A DNA stretch of 36,760 nt from a virus. The notes below the pieces were generated by a model. It saw only the letters and a list, made by a program, of their open reading frames with translations, did not search any database and had not been told where the DNA came from. The DNA is taken from positions 1-36,760 of the IMG/VR virus record IMGVR_UViG_3300045988_135562. The stretch is one strand, 5' to 3'. Shown piece by piece: positions 1,906 through 36,760 of this stretch (position 1 is its first letter; every line of letters starts with the position of its first letter). A program made the position numbers and the translations under genes.

Positions 1906-3042
1906 CTATATACCGTCGTTTTTCAGTTTTCCGTTGTCATTTTGTTGCCACATGGCGGAAAAGTATTCGTTGATTTCCTCGTCCACTTTGACCCGTTCGG
2001 CGGGCATGGTGTGCTGATAAACGGTCTTGAGCATATTGTTTGTGGAGTGGCCCATGCGCTCCATGGCATACTTGTCCGGGACACCCAGCTTGAGCATCAC
2101 AGAGGCGTTGACGTGGCGCAGGTCGTGGAAGCGGTAGTGCTTGATGCCGGCTTTCTCGCAGGACGACGAGAAAGCATAGTAAATGGCGCGGCGACTCTGA
2201 GGGCAAAGGTGCTCCTGATCTGCGGAAATAGCGCTGATCAGCGATAGGATATGAGCGGGGACGGTGAGATAGCGGTCGGAGCTGTACGTCTTCGGTGCTT
2301 TTTCGCCCTCGTCCACGAGAGCCTGCTTGACGTGGAGAACGCTGCCATTGATGCAGTCGCGGGTGAGGCCGCGGATCTCCGACATTCGGAGGCCCAGGCA
2401 CATAGCCAGTAAAACGGGAAGCTCCACCCACTTGCCGGCCACCGCAGCGGCAATAGACTTAATGTCGTCCTCGCTGGGCAGGACGATCTCTGCGCGGATC
2501 TTCTGCGGGAGGGTCACGTGCAGCGATATGTCGGGAGCAAACTCGCCCACAGTGGCGCTCAGAAGGCCGTAGGCGTTGCGGACGGATTTGGGGGAGGAAC
2601 TGCTTGCCATGGCGTTTACGGCACGCTGGACGCGCTCGTGAGACAGCGCGGAGAGCTTTTGACCCATGAGCGCAGCAAACGCATTTTTGCGGATGCGCTT
2701 ATAGCCGGCCACGGTAGACGGAGAAAGAACGTCCTCTTTCATCGCTATGTAGCGGTCTATGGCTTCGCCCAGGGTGAGGTTGATCTCCGGCGCGTCCGGG
2801 GCTTTTATCCCGTGCTTGATGGCCATAGCTTCGGCCTGGGCCTCGGCCTTGGTCGGTCGAGTGACGGACACATCCTGCCCGCCAACGCGCACGCGGCACG
2901 TCCACGCCCCGGAGGGCAGCTGCCGGGCGGCAGGCGCAGCGTCGCGGGATTTTTTCTCGCGAACCTGACGCGTGCCGCACCACTTACAGTAGACGCTGTC
3001 GCCGTCTATCTCGCGGGCGCAGCCTTTATTTTTGCAGATCAT
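1906..3042 (-). CDS. int: Tyrosine recombinase/phage integrase with N-terminal zinc ribbon
   Basis: N-terminus CKNKGC...CKWCG. Catalytic-type motifs are LRMSEIRGL, FHDLRH and GHS...VYQH. RBS GGGGGTGA. Adjacent to the tRNA fragment. Confidence 0.9.
   Translation of the reverse strand: MICKNKGCAREIDGDSVYCKWCGTRQVREKKSRDAAPAARQLPSGAWTCRVRVGGQDVSVTRPTKAEAQAEAMAIKHGIKAPDAPEINLTLGEAIDRYIAMKEDVLSPSTVAGYKRIRKNAFAALMGQKLSALSHERVQRAVNAMASSSSPKSVRNAYGLLSATVGEFAPDISLHVTLPQKIRAEIVLPSEDDIKSIAAAVAGKWVELPVLLAMCLGLRMSEIRGLTRDCINGSVLHVKQALVDEGEKAPKTYSSDRYLTVPAHILSLISAISADQEHLCPQSRRAIYYAFSSSCEKAGIKHYRFHDLRHVNASVMLKLGVPDKYAMERMGHSTNNMLKTVYQHTMPAERVKVDEEINEYFSAMWQQNDNGKLKNDGI
1930..1951. repeat. 22-nt direct repeat, copy 2 (inside the integrase 3' end)
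   Basis: TCCGTTGTCATTTTGTTGCCAC; see 1700-1721. Confidence 0.6.
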
Positions 3043-5057: not shown

Positions 5058-5376
5058 ATTTCTCCCGCTCACGCTTTTGGCGGAGCATGAAGGCAAAGAG
5101 TTCGTTCTGCTGCTCGGCGGTCATGCCGTCCAGCAGGCGGGCAAATTCCTCCCGCACGGGATCAGGCGGCGCAGGATCTTCGCCCAGCAGGTCGCTGACG
5201 GTGCAGTCCAGGTACTGGGCCAGCATCTGCACCTTCGCCACGGACGGCGTTTGGCCTCGCTCAATATCATTTATAAAACTTACGCCAACTCCGGCTTCGC
5301 GGCACGCCACCGTGGGCTTGACACCTTTTGCGGCACAACGCGTCTTGATATTCTGCACAAAAAGCTCCTTGTCCAT
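5056..5376 (-). CDS. cI-like XRE-family repressor (106 aa)
   Basis: HTH segment GVKPTVACREAGVGVSFINDIERGQ. It sits divergent to a strong plus-strand promoter with palindromic operators. Confidence 0.8.
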   Translation of the reverse strand: MDKELFVQNIKTRCAAKGVKPTVACREAGVGVSFINDIERGQTPSVAKVQMLAQYLDCTVSDLLGEDPAPPDPVREEFARLLDGMTAEQQNELFAFMLRQKREREK

Positions 5377-5385
5377 GATGACCTC

Positions 5386-5468
5386 ATACTATATAGATTT
5401 ATGCAAAGTGACAATTATTTGTAATTACAAAAATACGACTTGACAATTCGTGATTACGAATTTATGAT
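5386..5468. promoter_or_regulatory. Immunity switch: divergent promoters with two palindromic operators
   Basis: Minus strand: TTGTCA (5409-5414), 17 nt, TAGTAT (5386-5391), ending 9 nt before the cI-like ATG. Plus strand: TTGACA (5440-5445), 17 nt, TATGAT (5463-5468). Operators are TTTGTAATTACAAA (5418-5431, perfect) and ATTCGTGATTACGAAT (5446-5461), each preceded by GACAATT. Confidence 0.7.
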
Positions 5469-5508
5469 TAACTTGTCCCTCAGGTAAGAGCAAGAGGGAG
5501 GTGAGAAG

Positions 5509-5610
5509 ATGCGACGATGGCGAGAGTTTATGCGGAAGTATGGAATAACCATTGCTGTATCAGCGGCCACAACTGTCGTATTCCGGCTATTGTTAGATTG
5601 GCTGCTATAG
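5509..5610 (+). CDS. Small hydrophobic peptide (33 aa, MRRWREFMRKYGITIAVSAATTVVFRLLLDWLL)
   Basis: Strong RBS AGGGAGGTGA 6 nt upstream. It is the first ORF after the plus-strand promoter. It overlaps the 3' end of the convergent gene 5528..5941 by 83 nt. Confidence 0.4.
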   Translation: MRRWREFMRKYGITIAVSAATTVVFRLLLDWLL

Positions 5611-7274: not shown

Positions 7275-8024
7275 TTGGCAAAAAAAATTGAGCAACCGGC
7301 CTACTGGGCCGTGATCCCCGCCGACGTGCGCTACGATGACAAGCTGCCGCCCAACGCCAAGCTGCTGTACGGCGAGATCAGCGCCTTGTGCAACCGGGAG
7401 GGCTTTTGCTGGGCCGGCAACGAGTACTTCGCGGAGCTTTTTGGATGGTCGGCAAAATCCGTGACGCGGCTGGTGTCCGCGCTCCGGGACGGAGGTTACA
7501 TAGACACGGACATGGTGGCCTCCGGGACGGGTGCAACGCGGCGCATCTACGCCGGTGTGTATCCGGGGGGTCTCCGCAATTTTGCGGAGGGGGGGTCTCC
7601 GCAAAATTGTCTAGGGGTCTCCGCAAAATTGTCTACACCCCCACAATATAACAGGAATAATATAATTAATAATACCCCCCTTACCCCCCAGGGGGAAAAA
7701 GTGTGCAAAAAACGTGTGCACAAGGACGGGCCGGACTGGAAGCCGGAGCGGTTCGCGGGACTATGGGACTACTACCCCAGGAAGGGGCGGAAGAACAAGC
7801 AGCGGGCCATCCAGGCGTGGGACAAGCTGAAGCCGGACGACGCGCTTATCGACACCATGGCGCGGGCGCTGACGAAGCTGAAGGCCACGGAGGAGTGGCA
7901 GCGCGACATCGGCATCCCCCACGTGGCCACGTGGCTGAACGGGGAGCGGTGGCACGACGCGGACGAGCTGGACAGCCCTGACGGGCCTGACGGCGGCGGA
8001 GAGGCGGTGTACGGATGGCAGTAG
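7275..8024 (+). CDS. Replication initiator/replisome organiser (N-terminal wHTH, DnaD-like) with an internal origin
   Basis: TTG start per the track. N-terminus YGEISALCNREGFCWAGNEYFAELFGWSAKSVTRLVSALRDGGYI. Iterons and an AT-rich block are embedded mid-gene. Its stop overlaps the dnaB start. Confidence 0.65.
   Translation: MAKKIEQPAYWAVIPADVRYDDKLPPNAKLLYGEISALCNREGFCWAGNEYFAELFGWSAKSVTRLVSALRDGGYIDTDMVASGTGATRRIYAGVYPGGLRNFAEGGSPQNCLGVSAKLSTPPQYNRNNIINNTPLTPQGEKVCKKRVHKDGPDWKPERFAGLWDYYPRKGRKNKQRAIQAWDKLKPDDALIDTMARALTKLKATEEWQRDIGIPHVATWLNGERWHDADELDSPDGPDGGGEAVYGWQ
7567..7675. repeat. Origin of replication: iterons plus AT-rich unwinding block
   Basis: GGGGTCTCCGCAAAATTGTCTA occurs in perfect tandem (7592-7613 and 7614-7635), with a diverged copy GGGGTCTCCGCAATTTTGCGGAG at 7567. 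CACAATATAACAGGAATAATATAATTAATAATA follows. Confidence 0.75.
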
Positions 8025-9433
8025 CGGCTGAGAACAGTCTAGCAGGCCGCCTGACCGCGGAGAACGCTGTCATCGGCGCGATGCTCATTGACGAGACTAC
8101 CGTGTCGCCCATCCTGGCGGCTGTGAACGCCTCGGACATCTGCAACCCGGACAATCGGAGGATCTTCCAAGCGGCGCGGGCGCTGATGCTGGACGGTCTG
8201 CCGGTAGACCCGGTCACGATCCGGGACAAGCTGGGTCAGGGCATTGAGGAGCGGCTGATCCAGCTGATGGAGATCACGCCCACCAGCGCCAACTGGCGGG
8301 AGTACGCGGAGATCGTCCGCCAGCAGGCGGCGCTGGAGCGCATCCGGGCTATCGCGGCGGAGCTGGCCGGCGCTGTGAACGTGGACGACTGCCGGGAGCG
8401 CATCGCGGCCTTGGGTGAGCTGATGAGCACCGGCCAGGGCGTGGATGCCTGGAGCATGAAGGACGCCTATGAGCATTTCATGGCCGCCCAGGGCAGCGAG
8501 GCGAAACGCGAGTACATCAGCTACGGCATCCGGGAGCTTGACGAGGGCACGTACACAGAGCCGGGGGACGTGGTTGTCATCGGCGGTGAGCCCTCCAGCG
8601 GCAAGACGGCCTTTGCGCTGGCGCTGGCCTACCACATGGCCAAGACGCGCAGCGTGGGGTTCTTTTCCCTGGAGACGGGACAGAAGAAGCTGACGGAGCG
8701 CCTGGTGTCCACAGTGCTGGGCTTGGACTTCAACGTCGTCAAGCGTCAGCAGATGACGGAGGCCGACTGGCAGACGGTGGCCGAGGGCGGCCAGGAGTTC
8801 ACGGCGCGGCGGTTGACGCTGCTGCGGGGCAGCGGCATGACCGCCACGCAGATCCAGGCGGTGAGCAAGGCCTACGGATTTGACGTGATCTTTGTGGACT
8901 ACGTCCAGCTTGTCAGGCCGGAGACCGACCCGCGGGCCGGATCGGTGCAGGCGGTAGCGGCGATCTCCATGTCGCTGCACACCTTCGCCCAGTCCAGCGG
9001 GACGCTGGTGGTGGAGCTGGCGCAGCTGGCCCGTCCGCAGAAGCAGGGCGGATGGAAAGAACCGACCATGCACGACCTGAAGGAGACGGGCCAGCTGGAG
9101 CAGGACGCGGACATGGTGATGCTGCTCTATAAGCCCGGCCCGAAGGATCGCGTGCCATGGCTAGATGAGCCGCTCGACCCGGCGAAGTCGAGAATGCTGA
9201 AAATCGACAAGCAGAAGGAGGGCCGCCTGGGCCGCTGGCCCATGTTCTTCGATGGTGCGCACCAGCGCTTCAGCGTGATGGCCGGGCCGGACGGGCAGTC
9301 TGTCTTACGGCATTTTACGTCTGCCGGGAAAGCTCAAAAGACGAAGGCACGGGCGCAGTCGCCGGGGCAGATCGGGCTGCGTGAGATCAGTCCGCACGAC
9401 CCGGAGTGCCCGTGGCCGGAAAGGGAGGCGTGA
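8015..9433 (+). CDS. dnaB: Replicative DNA helicase (DnaB family)
   Basis: N-terminus AENAVIGAMLID. Walker A GGEPSSGKTAFAL. Also FVDYVQL and QLARP...DLKETGQLEQDAD. Confidence 0.9.
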   Translation: MAVAAENSLAGRLTAENAVIGAMLIDETTVSPILAAVNASDICNPDNRRIFQAARALMLDGLPVDPVTIRDKLGQGIEERLIQLMEITPTSANWREYAEIVRQQAALERIRAIAAELAGAVNVDDCRERIAALGELMSTGQGVDAWSMKDAYEHFMAAQGSEAKREYISYGIRELDEGTYTEPGDVVVIGGEPSSGKTAFALALAYHMAKTRSVGFFSLETGQKKLTERLVSTVLGLDFNVVKRQQMTEADWQTVAEGGQEFTARRLTLLRGSGMTATQIQAVSKAYGFDVIFVDYVQLVRPETDPRAGSVQAVAAISMSLHTFAQSSGTLVVELAQLARPQKQGGWKEPTMHDLKETGQLEQDADMVMLLYKPGPKDRVPWLDEPLDPAKSRMLKIDKQKEGRLGRWPMFFDGAHQRFSVMAGPDGQSVLRHFTSAGKAQKTKARAQSPGQIGLREISPHDPECPWPEREA

Positions 9434-9434
9434 A

Positions 9435-9749
9435 ATGCAGGTTGGCGATGTGATCAAATTCAGACCGTTTGCTCTGCGGTACGCAAAGGACACAGAGCTT
9501 AACGCGCCCTTCATGCCGGGAACGGTGGTGTGGGTGCATCCGCAGGGTCGGTTCGCCGTCGTGGAGCGGCGGACGGGATTTTACACGTACCGGGAATGCA
9601 TCCCGGTCAACAGAACGATGAGGAAAGAGGTACTAAACTGTGAGAACGATGGCAATCATGAACCTAAAGGGCGGTGTGGGCAAAACCGTAACCGCCCTCA
9701 CTTTGGCCGACGTGCTGCGCCGCGCCGGGAAGACTTCCGTGATCGTTGA
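9435..9749 (+). CDS. Hypothetical protein (104 aa); its 3' end overlaps parA by 110 nt
   Basis: ATG follows AAGGGAGG. The N-terminal 60 aa look protein-like. The Arg-rich tail overlapping parA is doubtful. Confidence 0.4.
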   Translation: MQVGDVIKFRPFALRYAKDTELNAPFMPGTVVWVHPQGRFAVVERRTGFYTYRECIPVNRTMRKEVLNCENDGNHEPKGRCGQNRNRPHFGRRAAPRREDFRDR

Positions 9750-10428
9750 CTGCGACGGGCAGATGAGCCTGACGCGGTTCTGCCTGCCGGATTTTGACCC
9801 CGACAACGCGCCCAGCGTGGCGGACGTGCTGCTAGGTTGCTCGGAGGCGGTGTGGAGCGACAACACCATCCCGCAGGACGCCCTGGGACGGATACAGCTG
9901 CTTCCGGGGTCGAGCACGCTCTACGAGCTGGACGTTAAGGCCCTCAAGAGCAGCATCCACAGCATCCACTCTCTCCGGGACTTTCGCGACGCGGCGGCGG
10001 AGGACGGCGTGGACTACATGATCTTCGATTGCCCTCCCGGCTTTACTGCGGCAAGCTGCGCCGCCCTGATGGCCTCCGACGAGGTGGTGATCCCTACTGT
10101 CGTGGATGGCTTCTCGCTGATGGGCGTGGGAGACATGGTCGCCCAGGTCGCCAGTATGCGGCAGGCCAATGCCGCTATCAAAATCGCCGGAATACTGATC
10201 TGCCAGTGGCACAACAGCGAGGCGGTGCGGCAGGGCGAGGCGCTGCTGCGCCAGCGCTGGCCGGTGTTTAACACAGTGATCCGCCGCACGGAGCGGCTGC
10301 CTGAGAGTACCTTCATGCGGCGGTCCGTGATGGATTACAGCCCGCGCAGCGCGGCGTCCCTGGACTACCGTGCGTGGGTGCGGGAATATTTGCACGAGGA
10401 GGTTCGAGATGATGGCCAAAAAGTTTGA
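9640..10428 (+). CDS. parA: ParA/Soj-type partition ATPase
   Basis: Deviant Walker A NLKGGVGKT near the N-terminus. Also DCDGQ and FDCPPG motifs. Confidence 0.85.
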   Translation: MRTMAIMNLKGGVGKTVTALTLADVLRRAGKTSVIVDCDGQMSLTRFCLPDFDPDNAPSVADVLLGCSEAVWSDNTIPQDALGRIQLLPGSSTLYELDVKALKSSIHSIHSLRDFRDAAAEDGVDYMIFDCPPGFTAASCAALMASDEVVIPTVVDGFSLMGVGDMVAQVASMRQANAAIKIAGILICQWHNSEAVRQGEALLRQRWPVFNTVIRRTERLPESTFMRRSVMDYSPRSAASLDYRAWVREYLHEEVRDDGQKV

Positions 10429-11926
10429 CATGGGCGATTTCGCCAAGACGCTGGCACAGCCCGTGTCCGAGTCGGGCACGGGGCGGGAGCAGATCGAGTA
10501 TATAGACGTGGATCTGTTGGACGGTGATCCGAGCAATTTTTATCAGCTCAACGATTTGGACGCGCTGGCTGATAACATCGCCACCATCGGCCTCCAGCAA
10601 CCCGTCCGCGTGAGGGATGGCGAGAATGGCCACGTGACGATCGTGTCGGGACACCGCCGCACGGCGGCTATCCGCGAACTGGTGGCGGGCGGACGGACTG
10701 ACCTGCGGGATGTGCCCTGCATCCGGGAGCGAGACGATGCCTCGCCGGCCCTGCGTGAGCTTCGCTTGATTTACGCCAATAGTGCCACCAGGCAACTGAG
10801 TTCTGCGGAGATCGCCCAGCAAGCCGAGAAGGTGAGGGAGTTACTCTACCGGCTGAAGGAGGAGGGCTACGAGTTTCCGGGGCGTATGCGGGATCATGTG
10901 GCGGAGGCCTGTAACATCAGCAAGAGCAAGCTGGCGCGGCTGGAGAAAATCGAGAAAGGGCTGGCTTCGTGCTACCGGGACGCCTGGAAGGCTGGGACGC
11001 TGCCGGAGGACACGGCGGACGCACTGTCTAGCCTGCCGGAGGACGTGCAGGAGCGCATCAAGCGCGTTTGCCCTAAGACTACGCCGACCGCGGGCCGTAT
11101 CCGGGATACAGTCAAGCGCGGAGAGTACCTGGCGGCGTCTTTTAAGTGCCCCGGCGGAGCGGCCTGTACGCACATGGACAAGTTTTTTCGGCATGACCTA
11201 AAGGAAAACAGCTGGGAAACCTGCGGCGGCGAGAAATGCTGCCTGAAGTGTAGCTCCGGCGGAGCGCATGATCCTGCGTCCTACTACGGCGCTGCCTGCG
11301 CGGAGATGTGCGGTAAGGCGCGGGAAAAATACGAGAAGGCCAAAGAGAAGAAAAAACTGTCCGATGCTGCCGCTGCAGAGAAAGTTCAAAATGAAACCGC
11401 CGCCAGGGTGCGGGCAGACGCCCGGCGTATTGTCCGGGCGGCGGACGCTGCGGGCCTGGGCGACGATGTGAAGCTGCGCTATGACTACGGAAGCCCCATG
11501 GTCGTCGGGCTATTGAGGCGAGTTTGCGCGGGAGAAATTCCTGATGAGGCAGGCTACCTCTTCCGAGGCAGCGGCCTCATGCCGTGGCGGGCCACGGACG
11601 CCGTGGGAACTGCTAAGACGCTGCACTGCTCCGTGGACTACCTGCTGGGTCTGACGGATGATCTCAGCCCTGCTGCCGCAGAACCCGGTCAGACCTCGCT
11701 GGCATTGTGGATGCCGGGCGGCATCTCGCCGGGCGATCCGCGCGACGTAGTGGCGGATTTTGTCGTGGGCGAGGACGTGCGCGGGCGCAAGACGATTATG
11801 CGGAAGGCGTGCCGGTGGGATGGGTCGTCATTCCTCTTCCGTGAGGGCGGCGCTGAAATAGACGCAGAGGTGGTGCGGTGGCTGGCGCTGCCGGAGGTGG
11901 AAAAGGAGGACGAGAACGATGATTAA
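10409..11926 (+). CDS. ParB N-terminal-domain protein with HTH, Cys-rich and second XRE-like HTH modules (505 aa)
   Basis: Start MMAKKF follows GGAGG. ParB/Srx box VRVRDGENGHVTIVSGHRRTAAIREL. Cys cluster CPGGAACTH...CGGEKCCLKCSSGG. The motif CSVDYLLGLTDD is typical of the end of an XRE HTH. Confidence 0.75.
   Translation: MMAKKFDMGDFAKTLAQPVSESGTGREQIEYIDVDLLDGDPSNFYQLNDLDALADNIATIGLQQPVRVRDGENGHVTIVSGHRRTAAIRELVAGGRTDLRDVPCIRERDDASPALRELRLIYANSATRQLSSAEIAQQAEKVRELLYRLKEEGYEFPGRMRDHVAEACNISKSKLARLEKIEKGLASCYRDAWKAGTLPEDTADALSSLPEDVQERIKRVCPKTTPTAGRIRDTVKRGEYLAASFKCPGGAACTHMDKFFRHDLKENSWETCGGEKCCLKCSSGGAHDPASYYGAACAEMCGKAREKYEKAKEKKKLSDAAAAEKVQNETAARVRADARRIVRAADAAGLGDDVKLRYDYGSPMVVGLLRRVCAGEIPDEAGYLFRGSGLMPWRATDAVGTAKTLHCSVDYLLGLTDDLSPAAAEPGQTSLALWMPGGISPGDPRDVVADFVVGEDVRGRKTIMRKACRWDGSSFLFREGGAEIDAEVVRWLALPEVEKEDENDD
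10460..10482 (+). repeat. Hairpin family copy 3 (10463-10479), inside the parB-like CDS
   Basis: CCCGTGTCC-GAGTC-GGGCACGGG. It encodes VSESGT in frame. Confidence 0.85.
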
Positions 11927-13503: not shown

Positions 13504-13604
13504 GGTGAACCCTCGCCGCATCCCGCGCACCCAGCATGATATTCGTGAGACGGTTAAGGACGAGGTAAAAGTCGTCTTTACAACGGAAAGGTGATGTATG
13601 CCAT

Positions 13605-13919
13605 ATGACATTTTTAGCGTATGCAAAAACTCATAGAAAAGAGCTTCTTATACTTGACGGTATTGATATTTCGTCAAAGTATTGCCCTCGTAACATGTTC
13701 GCCATATGTGAAGGGGAAGCCTGTGTCTTAGAGCAAAACCCGCATTTTACAGAAGAAGAGAGGAAAGAAGCCTGCTCTCTTTGCTGGAACCGAGAGATGC
13801 CTGGAACATTGGATGGCAGTAAACTTGAGTGTACTCCTATTTCCGGGGAAAAATACGCGAGGTATTGCAGTTTACTGATATATCGTTTCGGACATCCGGC
13901 AGATACTGAAAGAATATGA
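13605..13919 (+). CDS. Hypothetical Cys-rich protein in a low-GC patch (104 aa)
   Basis: ORF in a visibly AT-richer segment than its neighbours. No motif recognised. Confidence 0.5.
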   Translation: MTFLAYAKTHRKELLILDGIDISSKYCPRNMFAICEGEACVLEQNPHFTEEERKEACSLCWNREMPGTLDGSKLECTPISGEKYARYCSLLIYRFGHPADTERI

Positions 13920-13937
13920 TGTGGAGGTGGAATTGAC

Positions 13938-14093
13938 GTGAAGCCATGCGAACGGCCTATTGACACACTGCGGGAGTTTTTGGCCGACCCTGAGACAAAT
14001 ATCTCGTCCAAGGTCTATAACGCGATCCTGCTGGCGGTGGAGCTGATCGAAGCGCGTGAGCGGGTCACTGACCTGATGGAGGAGCTGACATGA
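13938..14093 (+). CDS. Small ORF (51 aa) coupled to the Rep gene
   Basis: GTG start 8 nt after GGAGGTGG. The stop overlaps the Rep ATG (ATGA). Confidence 0.45.
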   Translation: MKPCERPIDTLREFLADPETNISSKVYNAILLAVELIEARERVTDLMEELT

Positions 14094-14824
14094 CTGCGGG
14101 CGAGAACTCCTATGTCGTTGTCAGGCAGCGGGCGGGCGACCTTGAGAAAGTCATGGTCACTGACAACTACCGATACCTGCGACTTTATGGGCCGGAGGCC
14201 ACGCGGCGGCGCTGTGGCCCGGCCCTGAGCCGCACCAGTGTTGACAAGCTGGAGTTGCGGTTGGCGCTGTTTAAGTATGACGGCGTTTTTTGGACGCTGA
14301 CTTTCGATGACGCGCATCTCCCGGCAAGCCGCGCCGAAGCGGTCAAGGCGTGGAAGGCGTTTATGCGGAAGCTCCGACGATGCAGAGGATCTCCTGTTGA
14401 CTACTATGTCTACCGCATCGAGGGCCTCCACGGTGACAAGCGGTGGCATATCCATGTTTTCCTCCGCGGCGGTGACTTCACGGCGGAGGACGTCGCCTGG
14501 GCATGGGGCGGGCGCGGGAACATCAAAGCGGAGGTGTGGACGCGGGAGCGGGTGCTGGAGCGCCGGGACTACGACCCGGACTTTGTAGCGGGCTACCGCG
14601 GACTGGCGCGGTATTTTACCAAGGAACTCTCCGAAGTCGGGCGGCATCCCTGGGGCTGTTCTCAAGCGCTGGGGAAATGCATTCCTAAGCCTCGCATCGG
14701 CACGTCTGTAAGCGGCGCTGTTCGACCGCCGCCGGGGGCGGCTCTGCTCCCGGCGGACGGCGTGCCGAAGCTAACAGGATGGGGCGTGTACGGCTATTGC
14801 CGCTATCTTCTTCCTGGAAGTTAG
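14090..14824 (+). CDS. HUH-superfamily rolling-circle replication initiator (Rep_1/pC194-like motifs)
   Basis: Motif 1 is FWTLTFD, motif 2 is RWHIHVFL (HUH) and motif 3 is ARYFTKEL (Y-x-x-K), in the canonical order and spacing. Confidence 0.65.
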   Translation: MTAGENSYVVVRQRAGDLEKVMVTDNYRYLRLYGPEATRRRCGPALSRTSVDKLELRLALFKYDGVFWTLTFDDAHLPASRAEAVKAWKAFMRKLRRCRGSPVDYYVYRIEGLHGDKRWHIHVFLRGGDFTAEDVAWAWGGRGNIKAEVWTRERVLERRDYDPDFVAGYRGLARYFTKELSEVGRHPWGCSQALGKCIPKPRIGTSVSGAVRPPPGAALLPADGVPKLTGWGVYGYCRYLLPGS

Positions 14825-14968
14825 TGCTTTTATTTTAAATCTAAGGTAGGTTATACAAGAAGATTATAATAGGACTACTTCCTCTTTACTTGAAATCTTA
14901 TGAATATTTAGTGACAAACAGAGAAAGTGAGGCGAAAGCTCTTGCGAATAACATCTGAATACGGTACA

Positions 14969-15151
14969 ATGTCCCCAAGGACGGATGGTTGGTTGACCTG
15001 TCCCAGGTGCGGACGCAACCGACACTTCCTGCGAGTGCTGCCCGGCACGGTGGTCGCGAATCTGCCTGTGTACTGCCGGGACTGCAAAACGGAGATCATC
15101 CTGCATATTGAGCGAGAGGCCGGAGCGTTGAACGCCGGAGCCCATGAGTAG
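14969..15151 (+). CDS. Cysteine-rich KTR-domain-like small protein
   Basis: WLTCPRCGRNRHFLRVLPGTVVANLPVYCRDCKTEIILHIE matches my recollection of the Cys_rich_KTR pattern. An AT-rich upstream region (14825-14925, containing TATAAT) and a strong terminator flank it. The start could instead be GTG 14927. Confidence 0.6.
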   Translation: MSPRTDGWLTCPRCGRNRHFLRVLPGTVVANLPVYCRDCKTEIILHIEREAGALNAGAHE

Positions 15152-15199
15152 ACACCACGAGTTGGTGCTGCGTCATGGACTCCGGCGTTTTTGTTTTTT
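15131..15199 (+). terminator. Strong intrinsic terminator after the KTR gene
   Basis: AACGCCGGAGCCCATGA pairs with TCATGGACTCCGGCGTT (16/17), with an inner hairpin CACCA-CGAGT-TGGTG, followed by TTTTTGTTTTTTG. Confidence 0.8.
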
Positions 15200-15254
15200 G
15201 CCGCGAGGTGATAGCCGCGTGCCGGAACGCCGGAGGCCGTGACCAGGAGGGGCT

Positions 15255-15602
15255 ATGGGCATATCTGAGGGCCGTTTGGCAGAGCTGCGTGGGCTGCTGG
15301 ACGCAGGTGATGAACACGCATTCTATTCCTGGCCGGAGTGGCGGCGGCTGCGCCGCGAGGTGTTGAAGCTGGACAACCGCGAGTGCCAGGAGTGCAAGCG
15401 GCGCGGCGTGTACTCCAGGGCGGTCATTGTCCACCACGTGCAGCATTTGCGGGACAGGCCGGAGCTGGCGCTGTCCGTCTACGGCGGAGACCGGCGGCAG
15501 CTGGAGGCGGTTTGCAAGAGCTGCCACGAAGCGCTGCACCCGGAGAGCCAGCGGCAATACGCGCCTGGTGCGCCTCCGCTGACGGCGGAGAGATGGGATT
15601 GA
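15255..15602 (+). CDS. HNH endonuclease (packaging-associated type)
   Basis: CQECKRRG...VHHVQHLRDRPELAL...CKSCHEALH. It is positioned upstream of the terminase genes. Confidence 0.85.
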   Translation: MGISEGRLAELRGLLDAGDEHAFYSWPEWRRLRREVLKLDNRECQECKRRGVYSRAVIVHHVQHLRDRPELALSVYGGDRRQLEAVCKSCHEALHPESQRQYAPGAPPLTAERWD

Positions 15603-15630: not shown

Positions 15631-15850
15631 CCTGGACGCTACTCGCGGGGGTCCAGGACAATCCAGCGATTTTCGCGTCTGCGCGTTGCCGCGCAGCGCG
15701 TGGGCGCGAATATCGCCGGGCAATTTTCAAAAATCTGCGGTTTTGCGGGGCGCATCGTGCCCCAGCCATATTCTCTTTCCCCTCAGGGGTGGGCGGCTCA
15801 CCCGCCCGTCCCGCAAAGCCGCAGATGTGTGATGTGCCCAAGTCGGGCAC
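15631..15850 (+). other. Densely structured non-coding region (cos/packaging site or structured RNA candidate)
   Basis: Four hairpins. H1: CCTGGAC...GTCCAGG (15631-15657). H2: GCGATTTTCGCG...CGCGAATATCGC (15666-15716) enclosing CTGCGCG-TTGC-CGCGCAG. H3: ATCTGCGGTTTTGCGGG (15733-15749) pairing with CCCGCAAAGCCGCAGAT (15810-15826) and enclosing GGGCGG-CTCAC-CCGCCC. H4: the family hairpin at 15834-15850. The track ORFs here lack an RBS. Confidence 0.5.
15834..15850 (+). repeat. Hairpin family copy 4
   Basis: GTGCCC-AAGTC-GGGCAC, 17 nt upstream of the ATG at 15867. Confidence 0.85.
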
Positions 15851-28349: not shown

Positions 28350-30226
28350 GGCCGATCTTGTATCCGCCCGAAGAGCGGGCGTTTGACAGCAACGGCCTGG
28401 GCGTGCTGTCCGATGCAGCGTCCTGCCAGGTGACAGAGGAGCGCAACGGCGGCTACGAGCTGACCATGCAGTACCCGGTGAGCGGCATCCACTACGCCGA
28501 CATCGCGGAGCGCTGTCTGATCCTGGCGCGACCGCGCCCGGAGGCTGACCCGCAGCCGTTCCGCGTCTATCGCATCACGCGCCCCATGGGCGGCCTGGTG
28601 ACGGTCTACGCCGAGCACATAAGTTACGACCTGTCCGGCGTGGTTATGCCGCCGTTCTCAGCCCAGGGGGCGCAGGGGGTGTTTGCAGCTATTGCCTCCG
28701 GCGCTATTCCGGCGGACAATGGCTTCAGCTACTGGACAGACCGGCCCGGCGCGACCGCCGTGTCCAGCTCCGTGCCCCTGTCCGTCCGCTCCTTGCTGGG
28801 CGGCGTGAGAGGCAGCATCCTGGACATCTACGGCGGCGAGTATGAGTTCGATCGCTTCACGGTGAGGCTGTGGACGCGCCGTGGCGCAGACCGTGGCGTG
28901 ACCATCCGCTACGGCAAGGATCTTACGTCCCTGGATCAGGACGCCAACTGCGCGGCGGTCTACACGGCGGTGTACCCGTACTGGACGGATGACGAGACCG
29001 CCGTGGAGCTGCCGGAGAAAACTGTGCCCGTTTCGGGCACGTTCGACTTCACCCGCATTCTGACGCTGGATCTGTCGTCTGCGTTTGAGGACGCCCCCAC
29101 CGCCGACCAGCTACGGACGGCGGCGGAGTACTACATCGCCGACAACAAGGTGGGCGTGCCGCGAGTGTCCATCACGCTGTCCTTTGCCCAGCTGGACGGC
29201 GAGAAGGTGGAACTGTGCGACACCGTGTCCGTAGTGTTTGCGGCCATGGGCGTCACCGCCACGGCGAAGGTGGTAAAGACCACCTTTGACGTGCTGCGGG
29301 ATCGATACAGCAGCGCGGAGGTGGGCGACGTCCGGCCCAGCGTGGCGGACACCATTGCCGGACAGGCCCAGGACATCAGCTCTCTGCCCACCACGGAGGC
29401 GCTGCAAAAGGCGATCCTAAACGCCACAGGCTGGATTACCGGCACGAACGGCGGCTACGTGATTTTTAAGCGCAACGACGCCGGGCAGGCCACGGAGCTG
29501 CTGATCATGGACGCGCCGGAGACGGCGGACGCCAAAAACGTGTGGCGCTGGAATTTAGGCGGCCTGGGCTTCTCCAGCAACGGCGTCAACGGCCCTTATG
29601 AGACGGCGATCACGCAGGACGGCTCGATCGTGGGGAAATTCGTGACCGCGGAGGGGCTGAATGTTTACGCGGCGAACATTGTCGGGAAGCTGACAGCGGC
29701 GCAGATCGACGCCGACAACCTCCAGGTCAGGGCGGCCAACGTCACCGGGCAGCTGGTAGCTAGTCAGATCGACGCCTCCAGCCTGCACGTGAACGCCGCT
29801 AACGTGGACGGCCAGCTCCAGGCCAGTCAGATCAACGCAGACAACCTACAGGTCAAGGCGGCAAACATTACCGGGCAGTTGGTAGCATCGCAGATCGATG
29901 CTACCAACCTCCAGGTGAACGGCGCAAACATCTACAACCTGAAGGTCACAAACGCGGAGATCGAGAACCTGTCGTGCTCCAAGCTGACCGGCTATATTCC
30001 TGCCGCCCGAATAAGCGATAAAAGCAATTTCCTGAGCAGCCTATATGTTACAGCGCTGGAGAGCAACGAACAGTATTGCAGTAAAATCAAGATTGGCACT
30101 ACTCTAAGCGGATATATCGCGTACATGGACACGTCCGGGCTACATGGCAAGGGTGGAAGCGCTACATGGGAACAAATAATCACAATGTGTAGCGGGTCTG
30201 GGCAGACCACAGCTGTATTCGGATAA
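28346..30226 (+). CDS. Tail-associated lysin/Tal-like minor structural protein
   Basis: N-terminus MRPILYPPEERAFDSNGLGVLSDAASCQVTEERNGGYELTMQYP is typical of the prophage-tail endopeptidase/minor structural N-terminal region. Confidence 0.75.
   Translation: MRPILYPPEERAFDSNGLGVLSDAASCQVTEERNGGYELTMQYPVSGIHYADIAERCLILARPRPEADPQPFRVYRITRPMGGLVTVYAEHISYDLSGVVMPPFSAQGAQGVFAAIASGAIPADNGFSYWTDRPGATAVSSSVPLSVRSLLGGVRGSILDIYGGEYEFDRFTVRLWTRRGADRGVTIRYGKDLTSLDQDANCAAVYTAVYPYWTDDETAVELPEKTVPVSGTFDFTRILTLDLSSAFEDAPTADQLRTAAEYYIADNKVGVPRVSITLSFAQLDGEKVELCDTVSVVFAAMGVTATAKVVKTTFDVLRDRYSSAEVGDVRPSVADTIAGQAQDISSLPTTEALQKAILNATGWITGTNGGYVIFKRNDAGQATELLIMDAPETADAKNVWRWNLGGLGFSSNGVNGPYETAITQDGSIVGKFVTAEGLNVYAANIVGKLTAAQIDADNLQVRAANVTGQLVASQIDASSLHVNAANVDGQLQASQINADNLQVKAANITGQLVASQIDATNLQVNGANIYNLKVTNAEIENLSCSKLTGYIPAARISDKSNFLSSLYVTALESNEQYCSKIKIGTTLSGYIAYMDTSGLHGKGGSATWEQIITMCSGSGQTTAVFG
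29669..29920 (+). repeat. Four tandem 63-nt (21-aa) repeats within Tal
   Basis: The units are AANIVGKLTAAQIDADNLQVR, AANVTGQLVASQIDASSLHVN, AANVDGQLQASQINADNLQVK and AANITGQLVASQIDATNLQVN, followed by a partial fifth unit. Confidence 0.9.
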
Positions 30227-30239
30227 GAGGCAAGATACT

Positions 30240-31679
30240 ATGGCATATATATCAGGGAAATACACATCTGCAACAAGCTATACCGTTACCTTAGATGGTA
30301 TGAAAATTGGTATGGTATATGCTATATTGGTACAAGATCTAAACACAGACGGAAGCAGTAATGGTTTTATTTGTAAGTGGAAAAGCGGTGCTACAAGTTC
30401 GACCAACACTGTGAAATACACCACTACAGCAGCTTATAGTCAATATGATCGAAGAATTGGCTTTTTCCAAGGGTCTTTTGAAACCAATGTAGGGACAACC
30501 GTTTCAGACGCAAATTTTGAAAAATGGGCCGACGGAAAGGGTGTCATCTCAGCTTGGAATGGTGGAGGTGGCGGTGGAGGTAGTACTACCTATACTATTG
30601 GAGTGAATGCTAATGGTGGCACTTATAGCGGACCTACTCCTACCGTTAGCAGCACCTATCCGTACCTAAGCCTGACAGCCATATCTAATAGTACGTCGCG
30701 CAATGGGTATAAATTGACGGGCTGGCTGTGGTCTGTAGATGGTACTATATACTCTACGACAGCAACGATCTCGGGTATCTCAAGCTCCGGTACACTTACT
30801 GCGCAGTGGGAAAGGACATCTGTCACCATTACTTTAGATGCAAAGGAAGGAGTATTTCAGGATACGCGCCAGCATATACGCAGTATCACAAACCAAACAC
30901 CCGGAGATGTATTTTATTTTAAAGACTATTCGAGCCTAGTAACAAGAGACGGGTATGAGGTGATCGGTTGGAGCGCATCTTCTAGCGTTACTACGCCAAC
31001 TTATGACAAAAACGGGTATGTCAGCATCGGGTATACAAATGCCACATACTACGCCGTTTGGCAAAAATCTGTCGCAACCATTACCCTATATGGTAATGGC
31101 GGTTTATGGGGTGGTAATTTACAAAAACGTACTCTGACCAAAAATGTCGGTGAGACTGTTTCGTTTGCAGAATATGGTCCGAACGGAACACCGCCACTAC
31201 AATATGCCTACCACACTCTAGCTGGCTGGGGAACCTCTGCCACGGGAACAGCCGCATGGGACCCAAACGGGTATGTCACAGTAGGTGCCACAGACGCAAA
31301 TTATTATGCGATCTGGAAAAACCATATTGATCCGTTTTATTGGGACGGCAGCAGCGGCAGCAGCGACGGCAGCATCATCGCCGTGGGCTTGCCGCTATCC
31401 AATCTGACAGCGTCCCGCTGGAATAGGCTCATGGCCACACTGGCAGAGCTGGCGGCGGGCAACGGCAGCTCTTTCATCTACTCGCCGGTCGCGGCAGGCA
31501 GCAGGATCACGGCGGCGGGGTTCAACGCCGTCCGGGCAGCCATCGCGTCTCAGCCGGGCCACGGTGCGACGCCCGGAGCGCGCAGCGCGGGAGACAGTAT
31601 CCTGGCCAGCTACTACAACGGCGTCGGATCATTAAAAAATGCGCTGAATAGCGCAATAATCTACTACAACAACCGATAA
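30240..31679 (+). CDS. Receptor-binding/tail fibre protein with InlB B-repeat (Listeria-Bacteroides repeat)-like modules
   Basis: Repeated pattern TITLDAKEGVF...GYEVIGWSASS...YYAVWQK and TITLYGNGGLWGG...HTLAGWGTS...YYAIWKN. The 5' ~1.1 kb is markedly AT-richer than the rest of the genome. Confidence 0.6.
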   Translation: MAYISGKYTSATSYTVTLDGMKIGMVYAILVQDLNTDGSSNGFICKWKSGATSSTNTVKYTTTAAYSQYDRRIGFFQGSFETNVGTTVSDANFEKWADGKGVISAWNGGGGGGGSTTYTIGVNANGGTYSGPTPTVSSTYPYLSLTAISNSTSRNGYKLTGWLWSVDGTIYSTTATISGISSSGTLTAQWERTSVTITLDAKEGVFQDTRQHIRSITNQTPGDVFYFKDYSSLVTRDGYEVIGWSASSSVTTPTYDKNGYVSIGYTNATYYAVWQKSVATITLYGNGGLWGGNLQKRTLTKNVGETVSFAEYGPNGTPPLQYAYHTLAGWGTSATGTAAWDPNGYVTVGATDANYYAIWKNHIDPFYWDGSSGSSDGSIIAVGLPLSNLTASRWNRLMATLAELAAGNGSSFIYSPVAAGSRITAAGFNAVRAAIASQPGHGATPGARSAGDSILASYYNGVGSLKNALNSAIIYYNNR

Positions 31680-33951: not shown

Positions 33952-34476
33952 ATGGAGCTTTTTATTTCACATACCGCAGCGACAGACAACTGGATTAAGC
34001 AGCACCATTACCTACATAGCACACCTGCGGGGGCGCGTGTGAGGATGGAGTTTTATATTCCGTATTTGGACGCCTATCAACTTGTGAAAGAAACCGGGGT
34101 GAGTTTGAGCGATTTGGATATGCGTGACGGGAAATATCTTGTTGGCGCTATGATGTGGGGCCGACCAACAAGCCGAAAAATTGACCAAAAGGCAATACTC
34201 GAATTAACCCGATGCTGTTTTCTTGATTTTATGCCAAAGAACACCGAGAGCAAAGGCCTCGCCAAGGCGCGTGCATGGATTAGGAAGCATCTTCCAGATG
34301 TGAAAGGGCTTATCGCATATTCTTCCACCGCAGAGAGTCATCAGGGTACAATTTACCTTGCTGATGGCTGGTTTAAGATCTCTGAATCCGAGTCCCCTCA
34401 CGCATCTTGGGAGACGCGAGGAGGCCGTAAAAACAGAGACCTTAGTGTGAAGTATAAGTTTGCGCGGTCGCCTTAA
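33952..34476 (+). CDS. Mom-like/GNAT-fold putative DNA-modification protein (family call from memory)
   Basis: WIKQHHYLHSTPAG, ILELTRCCF...PKNTES and IAYSSTAESHQGTIYLADGW resemble the motif order I recall for phage Mu Mom relatives. It sits in a lower-GC patch between the fibre and lysis genes. Confidence 0.45.
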   Translation: MELFISHTAATDNWIKQHHYLHSTPAGARVRMEFYIPYLDAYQLVKETGVSLSDLDMRDGKYLVGAMMWGRPTSRKIDQKAILELTRCCFLDFMPKNTESKGLAKARAWIRKHLPDVKGLIAYSSTAESHQGTIYLADGWFKISESESPHASWETRGGRKNRDLSVKYKFARSP

Positions 34477-36556: not shown

Positions 36557-36760
36557 ATGAAAAAGACTTTTTATTCCGCCACCTACGCAGTATGGGGATC
36601 TAGCTTCTGTCGGGAGGCATGGTTTGACAACAAGGTCGCGGCGGACGCTTTCGCCGCGCACGATTTCCGGGACGACCCGGTGGCACACACCTACAGCAAG
36701 GCGGACAGCATCCGCGCCGCCGAGGATCGCGTGGCCGCTACGGCAGCAGAGCTGATCGCC
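36557..36760 (+). CDS. Hypothetical 68-aa protein; wraps the window end, stop codon at 59..61
   Basis: ATG lies 5 nt after GGGAG. 204 nt stay in frame to the window end, then TGA follows after the circular join. It is the first gene downstream of P2. Sequence MKKTFYSATYAVWGSSFCREAWFDNK...; no motif recognised. Confidence 0.6.
   Translation, partial: MKKTFYSATYAVWGSSFCREAWFDNKVAADAFAAHDFRDDPVAHTYSKADSIRAAEDRVAATAAELIA
36703..36760. repeat. Terminal direct repeat, second copy of 1..58
   Basis: Identical 58-mer at the opposite window end. Confidence 0.95.

Follow-up and report, generated by a model that had tools for sequence, protein, structure and literature searches.

The window analysed here is the whole stretch of 36,760 nucleotides (nt) of the IMG/VR virus record IMGVR_UViG_3300045988_135562 (positions 1 to 36,760). 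A direct repeat of 58 nt at its two ends (1–58 and 36703–36760) shows that the assembly closes into a circle and that the genome, of ~36.7 kb, is complete; its genes are arranged as in temperate siphovirus-like phages. We investigated the locus between its early genes and its packaging genes, where an open reading frame (ORF) encodes a predicted HUH rolling-circle-type endonuclease (Rep), followed by a gene for a Cys_rich_KTR zinc-ribbon protein (KTR) and by the cohesive genome ends (cos). An earlier note had read 13605–15199, with its Rep gene, as a captured plasmid- or satellite-derived segment or as a second, late rolling-circle mode of replication. The features of the locus are as follows (aa, amino acids; GC, guanine plus cytosine content).

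13540–13888: variable low-GC slot (GC 0.44), separate from the Rep cassette and containing most of the Cys-rich ORF
13605–13919, + strand: Cys-rich orphan ORF of 104 aa with 7 Cys, a 44% GC patch against ~62% around it
13937–14923: Rep cassette, made up of the coupled 51-aa ORF, Rep and the spacer including the 30-nt element
13938–14093, + strand: 51-aa ORF at the left cassette edge, with an ATGA overlap with the Rep start (translational coupling); homology to locus L002 stops at 13936
14090–14824, + strand: HUH Rep-type endonuclease ORF, 244 aa, ATG start, assigned from PF23343, phrog_3584, hhalign, the predicted fold and invariant residues
14825–14888, + strand: AT-rich spacer after the Rep stop, with a conserved GCTTTTATTTTA tract and then a clade-variable, partly palindromic stretch
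14889–14918, + strand: conserved 30-nt element CTTGAAATCTTATGAATATTTAGTGACAAA with a CTTG core, candidate cognate site of Rep
14923–14932, + strand: Shine–Dalgarno sequence GAAAGTGAGG for the family-wide TTG start of KTR
14942–15151, + strand: KTR, TTG start (PF14205, E=1.7e-9); the program-made ORF list starts it at GTG 14927
14942–14970, + strand: predicted sigma-70-like promoter TTGCGA-N17-TACAAT, over the first KTR codons
15130–15200, + strand: hairpin and T-run, intrinsic terminator between KTR and HNH with the late genes (dG -50 kcal/mol, z -6.5)
15255–15602, + strand: HNH endonuclease (PF01844; synteny), last gene before cos
15651–15665: genome termini (cos), between HNH and the ParB-methylase, located from overlapping ends of sibling contigs

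The Rep protein and its active site

The ORF at 14090–14824 indeed encodes, in order, the three motifs that had been read in it: motif I, FWTLTFD (aa 67–73, nt 14288–14308), motif II with its HxH signature, RWHIHVFL (aa 118–125, nt 14441–14464), and motif III with a single tyrosine, YFTKE (aa 175–179, nt 14612–14626). These satisfy the patterns hydrophobic-x-T-hydrophobic, H-hydrophobic-H and Y-x-x-K, respectively. Profile searches placed the protein in a HUH family. In Pfam, PF23343 (REP_ORF2-G2P) was the sole match (E=1.7e-6), its 28.7 bits against a gathering cut-off of 27.8 being marginal for a single sequence, and the same domain is also precomputed on most of the Rep homologues. PHROGs returned phrog_3584, ‘replication initiation protein’, with E=1.9e-27. 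Neither Rep_1 (PF01446) nor Phage_GPA (PF05840) gave a Pfam match to Rep at E<=1, and the Rep_1/pC194-like assignment of the earlier note therefore gives way to PF23343, a family of the microvirus and inovirus type. NCBIfam held no model matching Rep, KTR or their neighbours, and a PDB sequence search using Rep returned nothing relevant.

When we searched 50,697 phage records with Rep by tblastn, the matches were Flavonifractor phage Cormatin, five faecal ‘Bacteriophage sp.’ contigs and ~20 Microviridae Reps (E ~1e-5). An hhalign comparison of a profile of 41 family members with the Rep of Apis microvirus 5 gave a probability of 96% and E=2e-9, with motifs I–III in register, whereas the alignment with phiX174 protein A was not significant (probability 0.7%); the link to the Microviridae thus rests on the gokushovirus-like Reps. 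The AlphaFold (AF2) model of Rep, with a pLDDT of 84 and a pTM of 0.83, found as its top Foldseek matches in the PDB the nuclease domains of PCV2 Rep, B19 NS1, SIRV1 ORF119, AAV2 (origin-binding domain, OBD) and wheat dwarf virus (WDV) Rep, at probabilities up to 0.99 but with weak E-values, from 3.5e-3. In BFVD, 105 entries matched the model at E<=1e-3, led by ‘Replication-associated protein ORF2/G2P’ of uncultured siphoviruses and followed by microvirus Reps.

The catalytic positions of Rep turned out to be strictly conserved. Residues H120, H122, Y175, K178, E179, E111 and H114 are invariant in 93/93 distinct homologues, and L70, T71 and F72 nearly so. Judged by its sequence, Rep is thus a HUH Rep-class endonuclease with an intact active site, as the earlier note had supposed, and its residues and fold predict a catalytically competent, single-tyrosine enzyme of the microvirus type. 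Of the two outcomes that the note named as refuting, assignment to a non-HUH family and loss of the catalytic Tyr/His residues among homologues, neither occurred. The count of tyrosines sets the family apart, since the motif III alignment reads YIARYITKK in microviruses and LARYFTKE in the Rep family, and the position of the first microvirus tyrosine is occupied by Leu in 76 homologues, by Thr in 17 and by Tyr in none (n=93). In phiX174 protein A, the two tyrosines act in initiation and termination (PMC5714925). A one-tyrosine enzyme would suit a task that requires a nick without recircularisation. One homologue, P0036 (339 aa), has its motif I to motif II region duplicated internally, which may be a true tandem duplication or an artefact of the assembly.

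By sequence comparison, the closest relatives by descent are the Reps of gokushovirus-type microviruses, although their two tyrosines and their single-stranded DNA (ssDNA) genome context are not shared. Like the Microviridae initiators (gokushovirus-type VP4 and phiX174 protein A), to which it has sequence homology, Rep has motifs I, II and III in this order and a fold of their class, and its candidate site opens with CTTG(A), as does the phiX174 nick region. Unlike them, it has L/T-x-x-x-Y in place of Y-x-x-x-Y, hence one catalytic tyrosine instead of two, and is 244 aa long against ~290–510 aa. The Microviridae carry theirs on a 4–6 kb ssDNA genome with a VP1-type capsid gene; here the gene resides in a temperate tailed phage with 36.7 kb of double-stranded DNA, which has an initiator and a DnaB of its own as well as TerL, portal, ClpP and HK97-type capsid genes. 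The pC194/pUB110 Rep_1 proteins belong to the same superfamily and share the single-tyrosine chemistry predicted here, and the nick region of these plasmids has a CTTG-A-type core; unlike them, Rep lacks a PF01446 match and a plasmid homologue and is not borne on an autonomous small replicon.

Conserved synteny and exchange of the Rep cassette

A tblastn search of PLSDB with Rep found no homologue in 72,556 plasmids, and a plasmid origin of the gene was therefore rejected. Instead, we found Rep at one and the same place in ~150 Oscillospiraceae phage and prophage loci, namely Cormatin, 80 IMG/VR loci and 69 bacterial-genome loci. The bacterial genomes that carry it are all Oscillospiraceae (Oscillibacter, Dysosmobacter, Flavonifractor, Pseudoflavonifractor and Lawsonibacter), and some of the prophages are integrated in complete chromosomes. 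The locus order is fixed as DnaB-ParA-ParB, further upstream, then Rep, ~100 nt, the KTR zinc ribbon, terminator, HNH, cos and terminase. In Cormatin, which was induced as a prophage from F. plautii YL31 (PMC10197239), the initiator is followed by DnaB, ParA, a 516-aa protein, small ORFs, a Rep of 38% identity, KTR, HNH, TerS and TerL. Among the 57 loci having 6 kb of upstream sequence, 56 have a DnaB, ParA or ParB-like gene there. KTR was detected 3' of Rep in 73/83 loci by tblastn and in ~145/149 on inspection; with few exceptions it is located +776 to +865 nt from the start of Rep, and it persists even where TerL is just 22% identical. The order Rep–element–KTR holds across Oscillospiraceae phages down to a Rep identity of 33%. 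Rep is thus a core gene of a temperate cos-type siphophage family of Oscillospiraceae. Three loci depart from the common arrangement: L159 retains the element and lacks KTR, L220 has a methyltransferase next after Rep, and the Oscillibacter ruminantium GH1 copy L160 (the same sequence as the IMG/VR locus L053) has Rep without element or KTR.

The siblings MT835558 and MT836068, whose backbone is ~85% identical in nucleotide sequence, lose homology to the window at 13540 and regain it at 14924/14935, and at that site both carry a Rep allele that is just 32–33% identical. Since the siblings hold a divergent allele at the same site, 13937–14923 is an allelic cassette, with breakpoints at 13937 and 14924. 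KTR lies within the shared backbone; it is hence a backbone gene and the constant downstream partner of Rep, and not a moron, as it had been called. The neighbouring slot behaved differently, with homology to L005, L006–L011 and L002 breaking at 13539/13540 and returning at 13888/13889, and with a different 170 nt in place of 13540–13888 in L005. The indel relative to siblings that the earlier note had envisaged for the whole of 13605–15199 accordingly applies to the Cys-rich ORF slot, and does not apply to Rep, for which an allele is present, or to the backbone gene KTR.

The two small ORFs before Rep had been described correctly, the one as low in GC and rich in Cys and the other as coupled to Rep. 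The Cys-rich ORF matched no Pfam, PHROG or NCBIfam family, is missing from the siblings and has only 4 homologue clusters among 5.8 billion proteins; it is an accessory, moron-like gene. Homologues of the 51-aa ORF were found upstream of Rep in the closest clades only. The upstream neighbour varies by clade, and no conserved protein partner of Rep was found at this position; the genes upstream in L073 (PcfJ-like and SSB) were uninformative on a second initiator.

Exchange of an initiator together with its site has a precedent in the lambdoid cassettes of O protein and iterons, where divergent initiator alleles and matching cis sites are likewise swapped as a unit among near-identical phages. 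Unlike in those, the exchanged protein here is a predicted HUH nickase, its putative site lies downstream of the gene, and the same genomes have another, O-like cassette, whose repeats are intragenic.

A conserved element between Rep, the KTR promoter and cos

We then compared the short spacer between Rep and KTR across the loci. The 30-nt element at 14889–14918 is unique in the window, where 0.01 matches would be expected by chance. In IMG/VR, the exact pattern matched 58 times, always between Rep and KTR and in the same orientation (58/58), and none of these matches was an orphan copy without Rep. The element is conserved across Rep alleles of 33% to 93% identity and exceeds both of its flanks in conservation at all levels of Rep divergence (0.82 versus 0.65 and 0.66 at a Rep identity of 60–85%). 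Its 44 distinct variants have CTTG-N-R-A-N-N-T-A-G-T-K in common, while the 3' half is clade-specific and often consists of two half-sites 11 nt apart, such as CTACGGA-ATAT-CTACGGA; the L002-type element reads CTTGTGATATAGTTGAACAAATCAC.

Furthermore, the identity of the element follows that of Rep (r=0.78, partial r=0.77, 0/500 permutations as high) and not that of KTR (partial r=-0.08). In pairs of loci with Rep >=75% and KTR <45% identical, element identity is 95%, versus 46% in pairs with KTR >=75% and Rep <45%. Such covariation is the pattern expected for an initiator plus its own site, which makes the element a candidate site of Rep. The arrangement also corresponds to that of a rolling-circle double-strand origin, in that a single conserved site adjoins Rep in a fixed orientation and its putative specificity part covaries with Rep. 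The statement that no nick sequence is evident nearby should thus be softened. The CTTG(A) core resembles the start of the phiX174 origin nick region, in which we take the nick position to be CAACTTG/ATATTAATAAC...; the 30-nt phiX174 origin string is located inside gene A of phiX174 and G4. By eye, CTTGATAAACCTATTGG is present in the large intergenic region of Apis microvirus 5, which we treat as anecdotal.

As a promoter of the sigma-70 type, the element was rejected because its TTGAAA and TATTTA boxes are just 9 nt apart; the canonical promoter is separate from it, 53 nt downstream. This promoter has the form TTGNNN-N17-TANNNT in 30/30 diverse loci, in which the first T of the -10 hexamer, at a synonymous codon position, is invariant. 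In L215, TTGACT-N17-TAAAAT is present though KTR starts at a separate ATG. A GGAGG-like block precedes the KTR TTG by 7–9 nt in all loci. The promoter TTG doubles as the KTR start codon, and the zinc ribbon could not be translated from RNA that starts at the predicted promoter. CTTG and the -35 hexamer are 52–54 nt apart in 83 loci and 42–43 nt apart in 11, with none intermediate; both classes occur with the same element type, and the step between them is about one helical turn (10–11 nt).

On the other side of KTR, the terminator hairpin spans the KTR stop codon and is present in 88/93 loci, with a clade-dependent stem sequence. HNH begins 55 nt after it. Since so strong a terminator precedes HNH, the late genes appear to depend on read-through. 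The predicted arrangement, in which the late genes for packaging and structure follow directly on a constitutive-looking promoter, a short unit of ~230 nt and a strong terminator, resembles the PR'-6S RNA-tR' region of lambda. Unlike in lambda, the short unit encodes a zinc-ribbon protein, a HUH Rep lies directly upstream and no Q-like antiterminator was identified.

The genome ends were located from contig ends. In the IMG/VR contigs L009 and L029, phage sequence runs straight into the Illumina adapter AGATCGGAAGAGC at the contig end, and these adapter-marked physical ends identify a cos phage. The end of L009 maps to ~15665 and the sibling contig L003 starts at 15651; the two overlap by ~15 nt, GTCCAGGACAATCC, and the cohesive ends may thus be of the same length. 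Many uncultivated virus genome (UViG) contigs likewise stop 0.7–0.95 kb after Rep. The cos site is thus 0.76 kb to the right of the element, and Rep, KTR and HNH are the last genes of virion DNA. Just right of cos, at 15729–15830, lies a long inverted repeat, ATCTGCGGTTTTGCGGG ... CCCGCAAAGCCGCAGAT, also present in L003, which may be a terminase or cosB-type site. An Rfam search of the window returned no family; the inverted repeat was scored there as a generic hairpin on both strands. Two IMG/VR contig stretches, L118:1-32 and L135:1-32, both begin 4 nt upstream of the element (TCCT|CTTGAAACC...), which is the sole hint of a Rep-dependent nick there and probably reflects an assembly-graph break at a block common to co-occurring phages; a physical DNA end is possible.

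A proposed role for Rep in late replication

Rep is not the only putative initiator of this phage. The remaining features of the genome, in order, are as follows.

1906–3042, minus strand: tyrosine integrase
after the integrase: helix-turn-helix (HTH) regulators
7275–8024: O/DnaD-like replication initiator (HTH_36; phrog_270, E=1e-36)
8015–9433: DnaB
between the ParB_N protein and Rep: a run of small ORFs
3' of Rep: the KTR zinc-ribbon ORF, HNH, ParB-methylase, TerS, TerL, portal, ClpP protease and HK97-type capsid protein

Nested inverted and direct repeats, CAATTTTGCGGAG / CTCCGCAAAATTG, lie at 7566–7642 within the gene of the O/DnaD-like initiator and are likely the origin that it uses, in line with the iteron-binding initiator and DnaB that the earlier note had recognised. 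ParA and a 518-aa ParB_N protein adjoin DnaB (9640–11926) and are conserved there despite the chromosomal integration of these phages. No recombinase was detected among the early genes, for several of which a function was not assignable.

We tentatively propose, with somewhat less than even confidence, that Rep would be a site- and strand-specific nickase that acts on the element and starts sigma-mode replication for cos packaging. What the sequences show is family membership, the intact active site, the fixed synteny, the exchange of the cassette, the conservation and covariation of the element and the position of cos; that Rep acts on the element, where it would nick it and that this serves sigma replication are inferred. 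Early replication would start from the iteron-type initiator and DnaB module, after which Rep would recognise the clade-specific 3' half of the element and nick the + strand at the invariant CTTG/A core, at ~14892/14893. Rep would remain attached via Y175, the free 3'-OH would prime rightward leading-strand synthesis, and the displaced strand would be copied with the phage DnaB to give sigma-form concatemers, which the physical cos ends would make necessary. Because the nick would lie 0.76 kb upstream of cos, the sigma tail would reach the first cos site almost at once, and the second microvirus tyrosine would be dispensable because initiation alone, and not recircularisation, would be required. 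The second, late rolling-circle mode that the earlier note had suggested is plausible.

By analogy, and without membership in its sequence family, the closest functional counterpart of Rep would be protein A of P2 and 186. Both are HUH nickases (predicted here) of temperate tailed cos phages with a site in or next to their own gene, and Rep would likewise give rolling-circle replication that feeds cos packaging. P2 also has Ogr, a small Cys4 zinc protein that is important for late genes and coexists with the HUH initiator, and here KTR stands as a small Cys-rich zinc protein alongside Rep. Unlike P2/186 protein A, Rep has no Phage_GPA match, is one third the size and has a single Tyr; the phage has an independent iteron-type initiator and its own DnaB, Rep adjoins the zinc-ribbon gene, and a promoter and terminator unit lies between Rep and the late genes.

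Several points weigh against a nickase that starts sigma replication. Cleavage by Rep is a prediction, the likeness of the element to known nick sites is limited to a core of 4–5 nt, and a position weight matrix of the element, run over 12 related microvirus genomes, gave one nominally significant match (1/12) and no consistent counterpart, so that an origin sequence common to both groups was not detected in these genomes. Folding of the Rep–KTR spacer as ssDNA, in 7 clades, gave no significant or conserved hairpin presenting CTTG. The covariation of the element with Rep could come from linkage alone, with recombination confined to the conserved Shine–Dalgarno and promoter block. Since the phage already has a full set of initiator and helicase, Rep may be unneeded for replication, and the early ORFs without an assignable function could provide a recombination route to concatemers. 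Finally, the quantised spacing of the element (43 or 53 nt) to the sigma-70-like promoter looks like that of a transcription-factor site.

This last point leads to the main alternative, that Rep mainly regulates or licenses the late operon by binding, and perhaps nicking, the element in a fixed helical phase upstream of the promoter–KTR–terminator unit and thus couples late transcription to replication. We regard it as unlikely, although much of the architecture would fit: the element lies at about -88 to -58 from the inferred start of the conserved promoter, in one of two spacings and never between, with the same element type in both; the Rep gene is in the classic position of a late regulator, where the early genes end and shortly ahead of the packaging genes; the near-universal terminator after KTR would make the late genes need read-through; and another initiator is at hand. 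However, the His pair, Tyr and Lys that are invariant in all 93 sequences argue that the chemistry of cleavage has been kept, for which a regulator that only bound DNA would have no need, and we know of no HUH Rep that acts as a late activator. The promoter is a predicted one, and the two spacing classes could go back to two ancestral forms of the module on the KTR side that recombination has reassorted. A combination of both activities, in which Rep would bind and nick its site whole helical turn(s) upstream of the promoter–KTR–terminator unit and, as a replication-coupled switch, license late transcription or read-through (HNH, cos, terminase) while starting sigma replication towards cos, appears improbable.

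We consider three further explanations less likely than either the nickase or the late regulator. Rep could be the sole lytic initiator, as in P2-type phages, which replicate wholly via their HUH protein and use a DnaB-type helicase; the HTH_36 initiator, DnaB, ParA and ParB would then serve another purpose, for example plasmid-like maintenance or the supply of helicase. The adjacency of ParA and ParB to DnaB and the near-universal co-occurrence of Rep and DnaB would agree with this, but an O/DnaD-like initiator with internal repeats, coupled directly to DnaB, is a standard lytic origin module, and a plasmid-maintenance replicon is unneeded where prophages are chromosomally integrated and the window has an integrase, so that we assign it little probability. 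It is very improbable that Rep is an accessory or selfish gene, serving for example to exclude microviruses or related phages with a similar origin, or a domesticated remnant without a role in replication. Its nearest outside relatives are indeed microvirus Reps, and fast allelic replacement among siblings is seen also in conflict-related genes; sporadic defence morons, however, would not be near-universal at a single locus with a cognate cis element on their own genome, and this element had no consistent counterpart in the 12 microvirus genomes scanned. As for the recent capture of 13605–15199 from a plasmid or satellite, the low GC of 13601–14000 and of 14801–15200 (48.5%) and the true indel at 13540–13888 speak for it, but the Rep ORF itself has a backbone-like GC of 60–65%, and the conserved Rep–element–KTR synteny, the backbone position of KTR, the siblings with an allele in place of an empty site and the plasmid search already contradict this reading, which is extremely improbable.

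Among tailed phages, rolling-circle replication started by a HUH protein is known chiefly from the P2-like group, and to our knowledge the formation of concatemers is unclear for most Firmicutes cos phages. Since the family is already auto-annotated, as ‘replication initiation protein’ in Cormatin and as PF23343 in uncultured siphoviruses, the bare presence of the gene is not new. Our literature searches, which covered PF23343, PF14205, HUH Reps in Caudoviricetes and the phiX origin string, returned no study of this Rep family and no description of the dual-initiator architecture, the single-tyrosine state, the exchange of enzyme plus site as a cassette or the fixed placement by the late control region and cos; the paper that named Cormatin (PMC10197239) is silent in its main text on both rolling-circle replication and a replication initiation protein. 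A widespread lineage of Oscillospiraceae gut phages thus has two putative initiators of different mechanistic classes, the second being a minimal single-tyrosine relative of microvirus Reps, and the lineage includes a cultivable and inducible member, Cormatin, in the OMM12 model strain F. plautii YL31. If the nickase role is true, it would provide a simple enzymatic switch from theta to sigma replication and natural orthogonal pairs of nickase and site, possibly useful as HUH tags, and would document gene flow between ssDNA microviruses and tailed phages. A mainly regulatory Rep would be even more unusual, and a replication-coupled switch would be a new regulatory use of a HUH endonuclease and would connect replication mechanistically with late transcription in temperate phages.

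Low GC is not confined to this locus. Further patches of 0.43–0.48, against ~0.62, lie at 5201–5600, 30001–31200 and 34001–34400 and are probably further accessory insertions.

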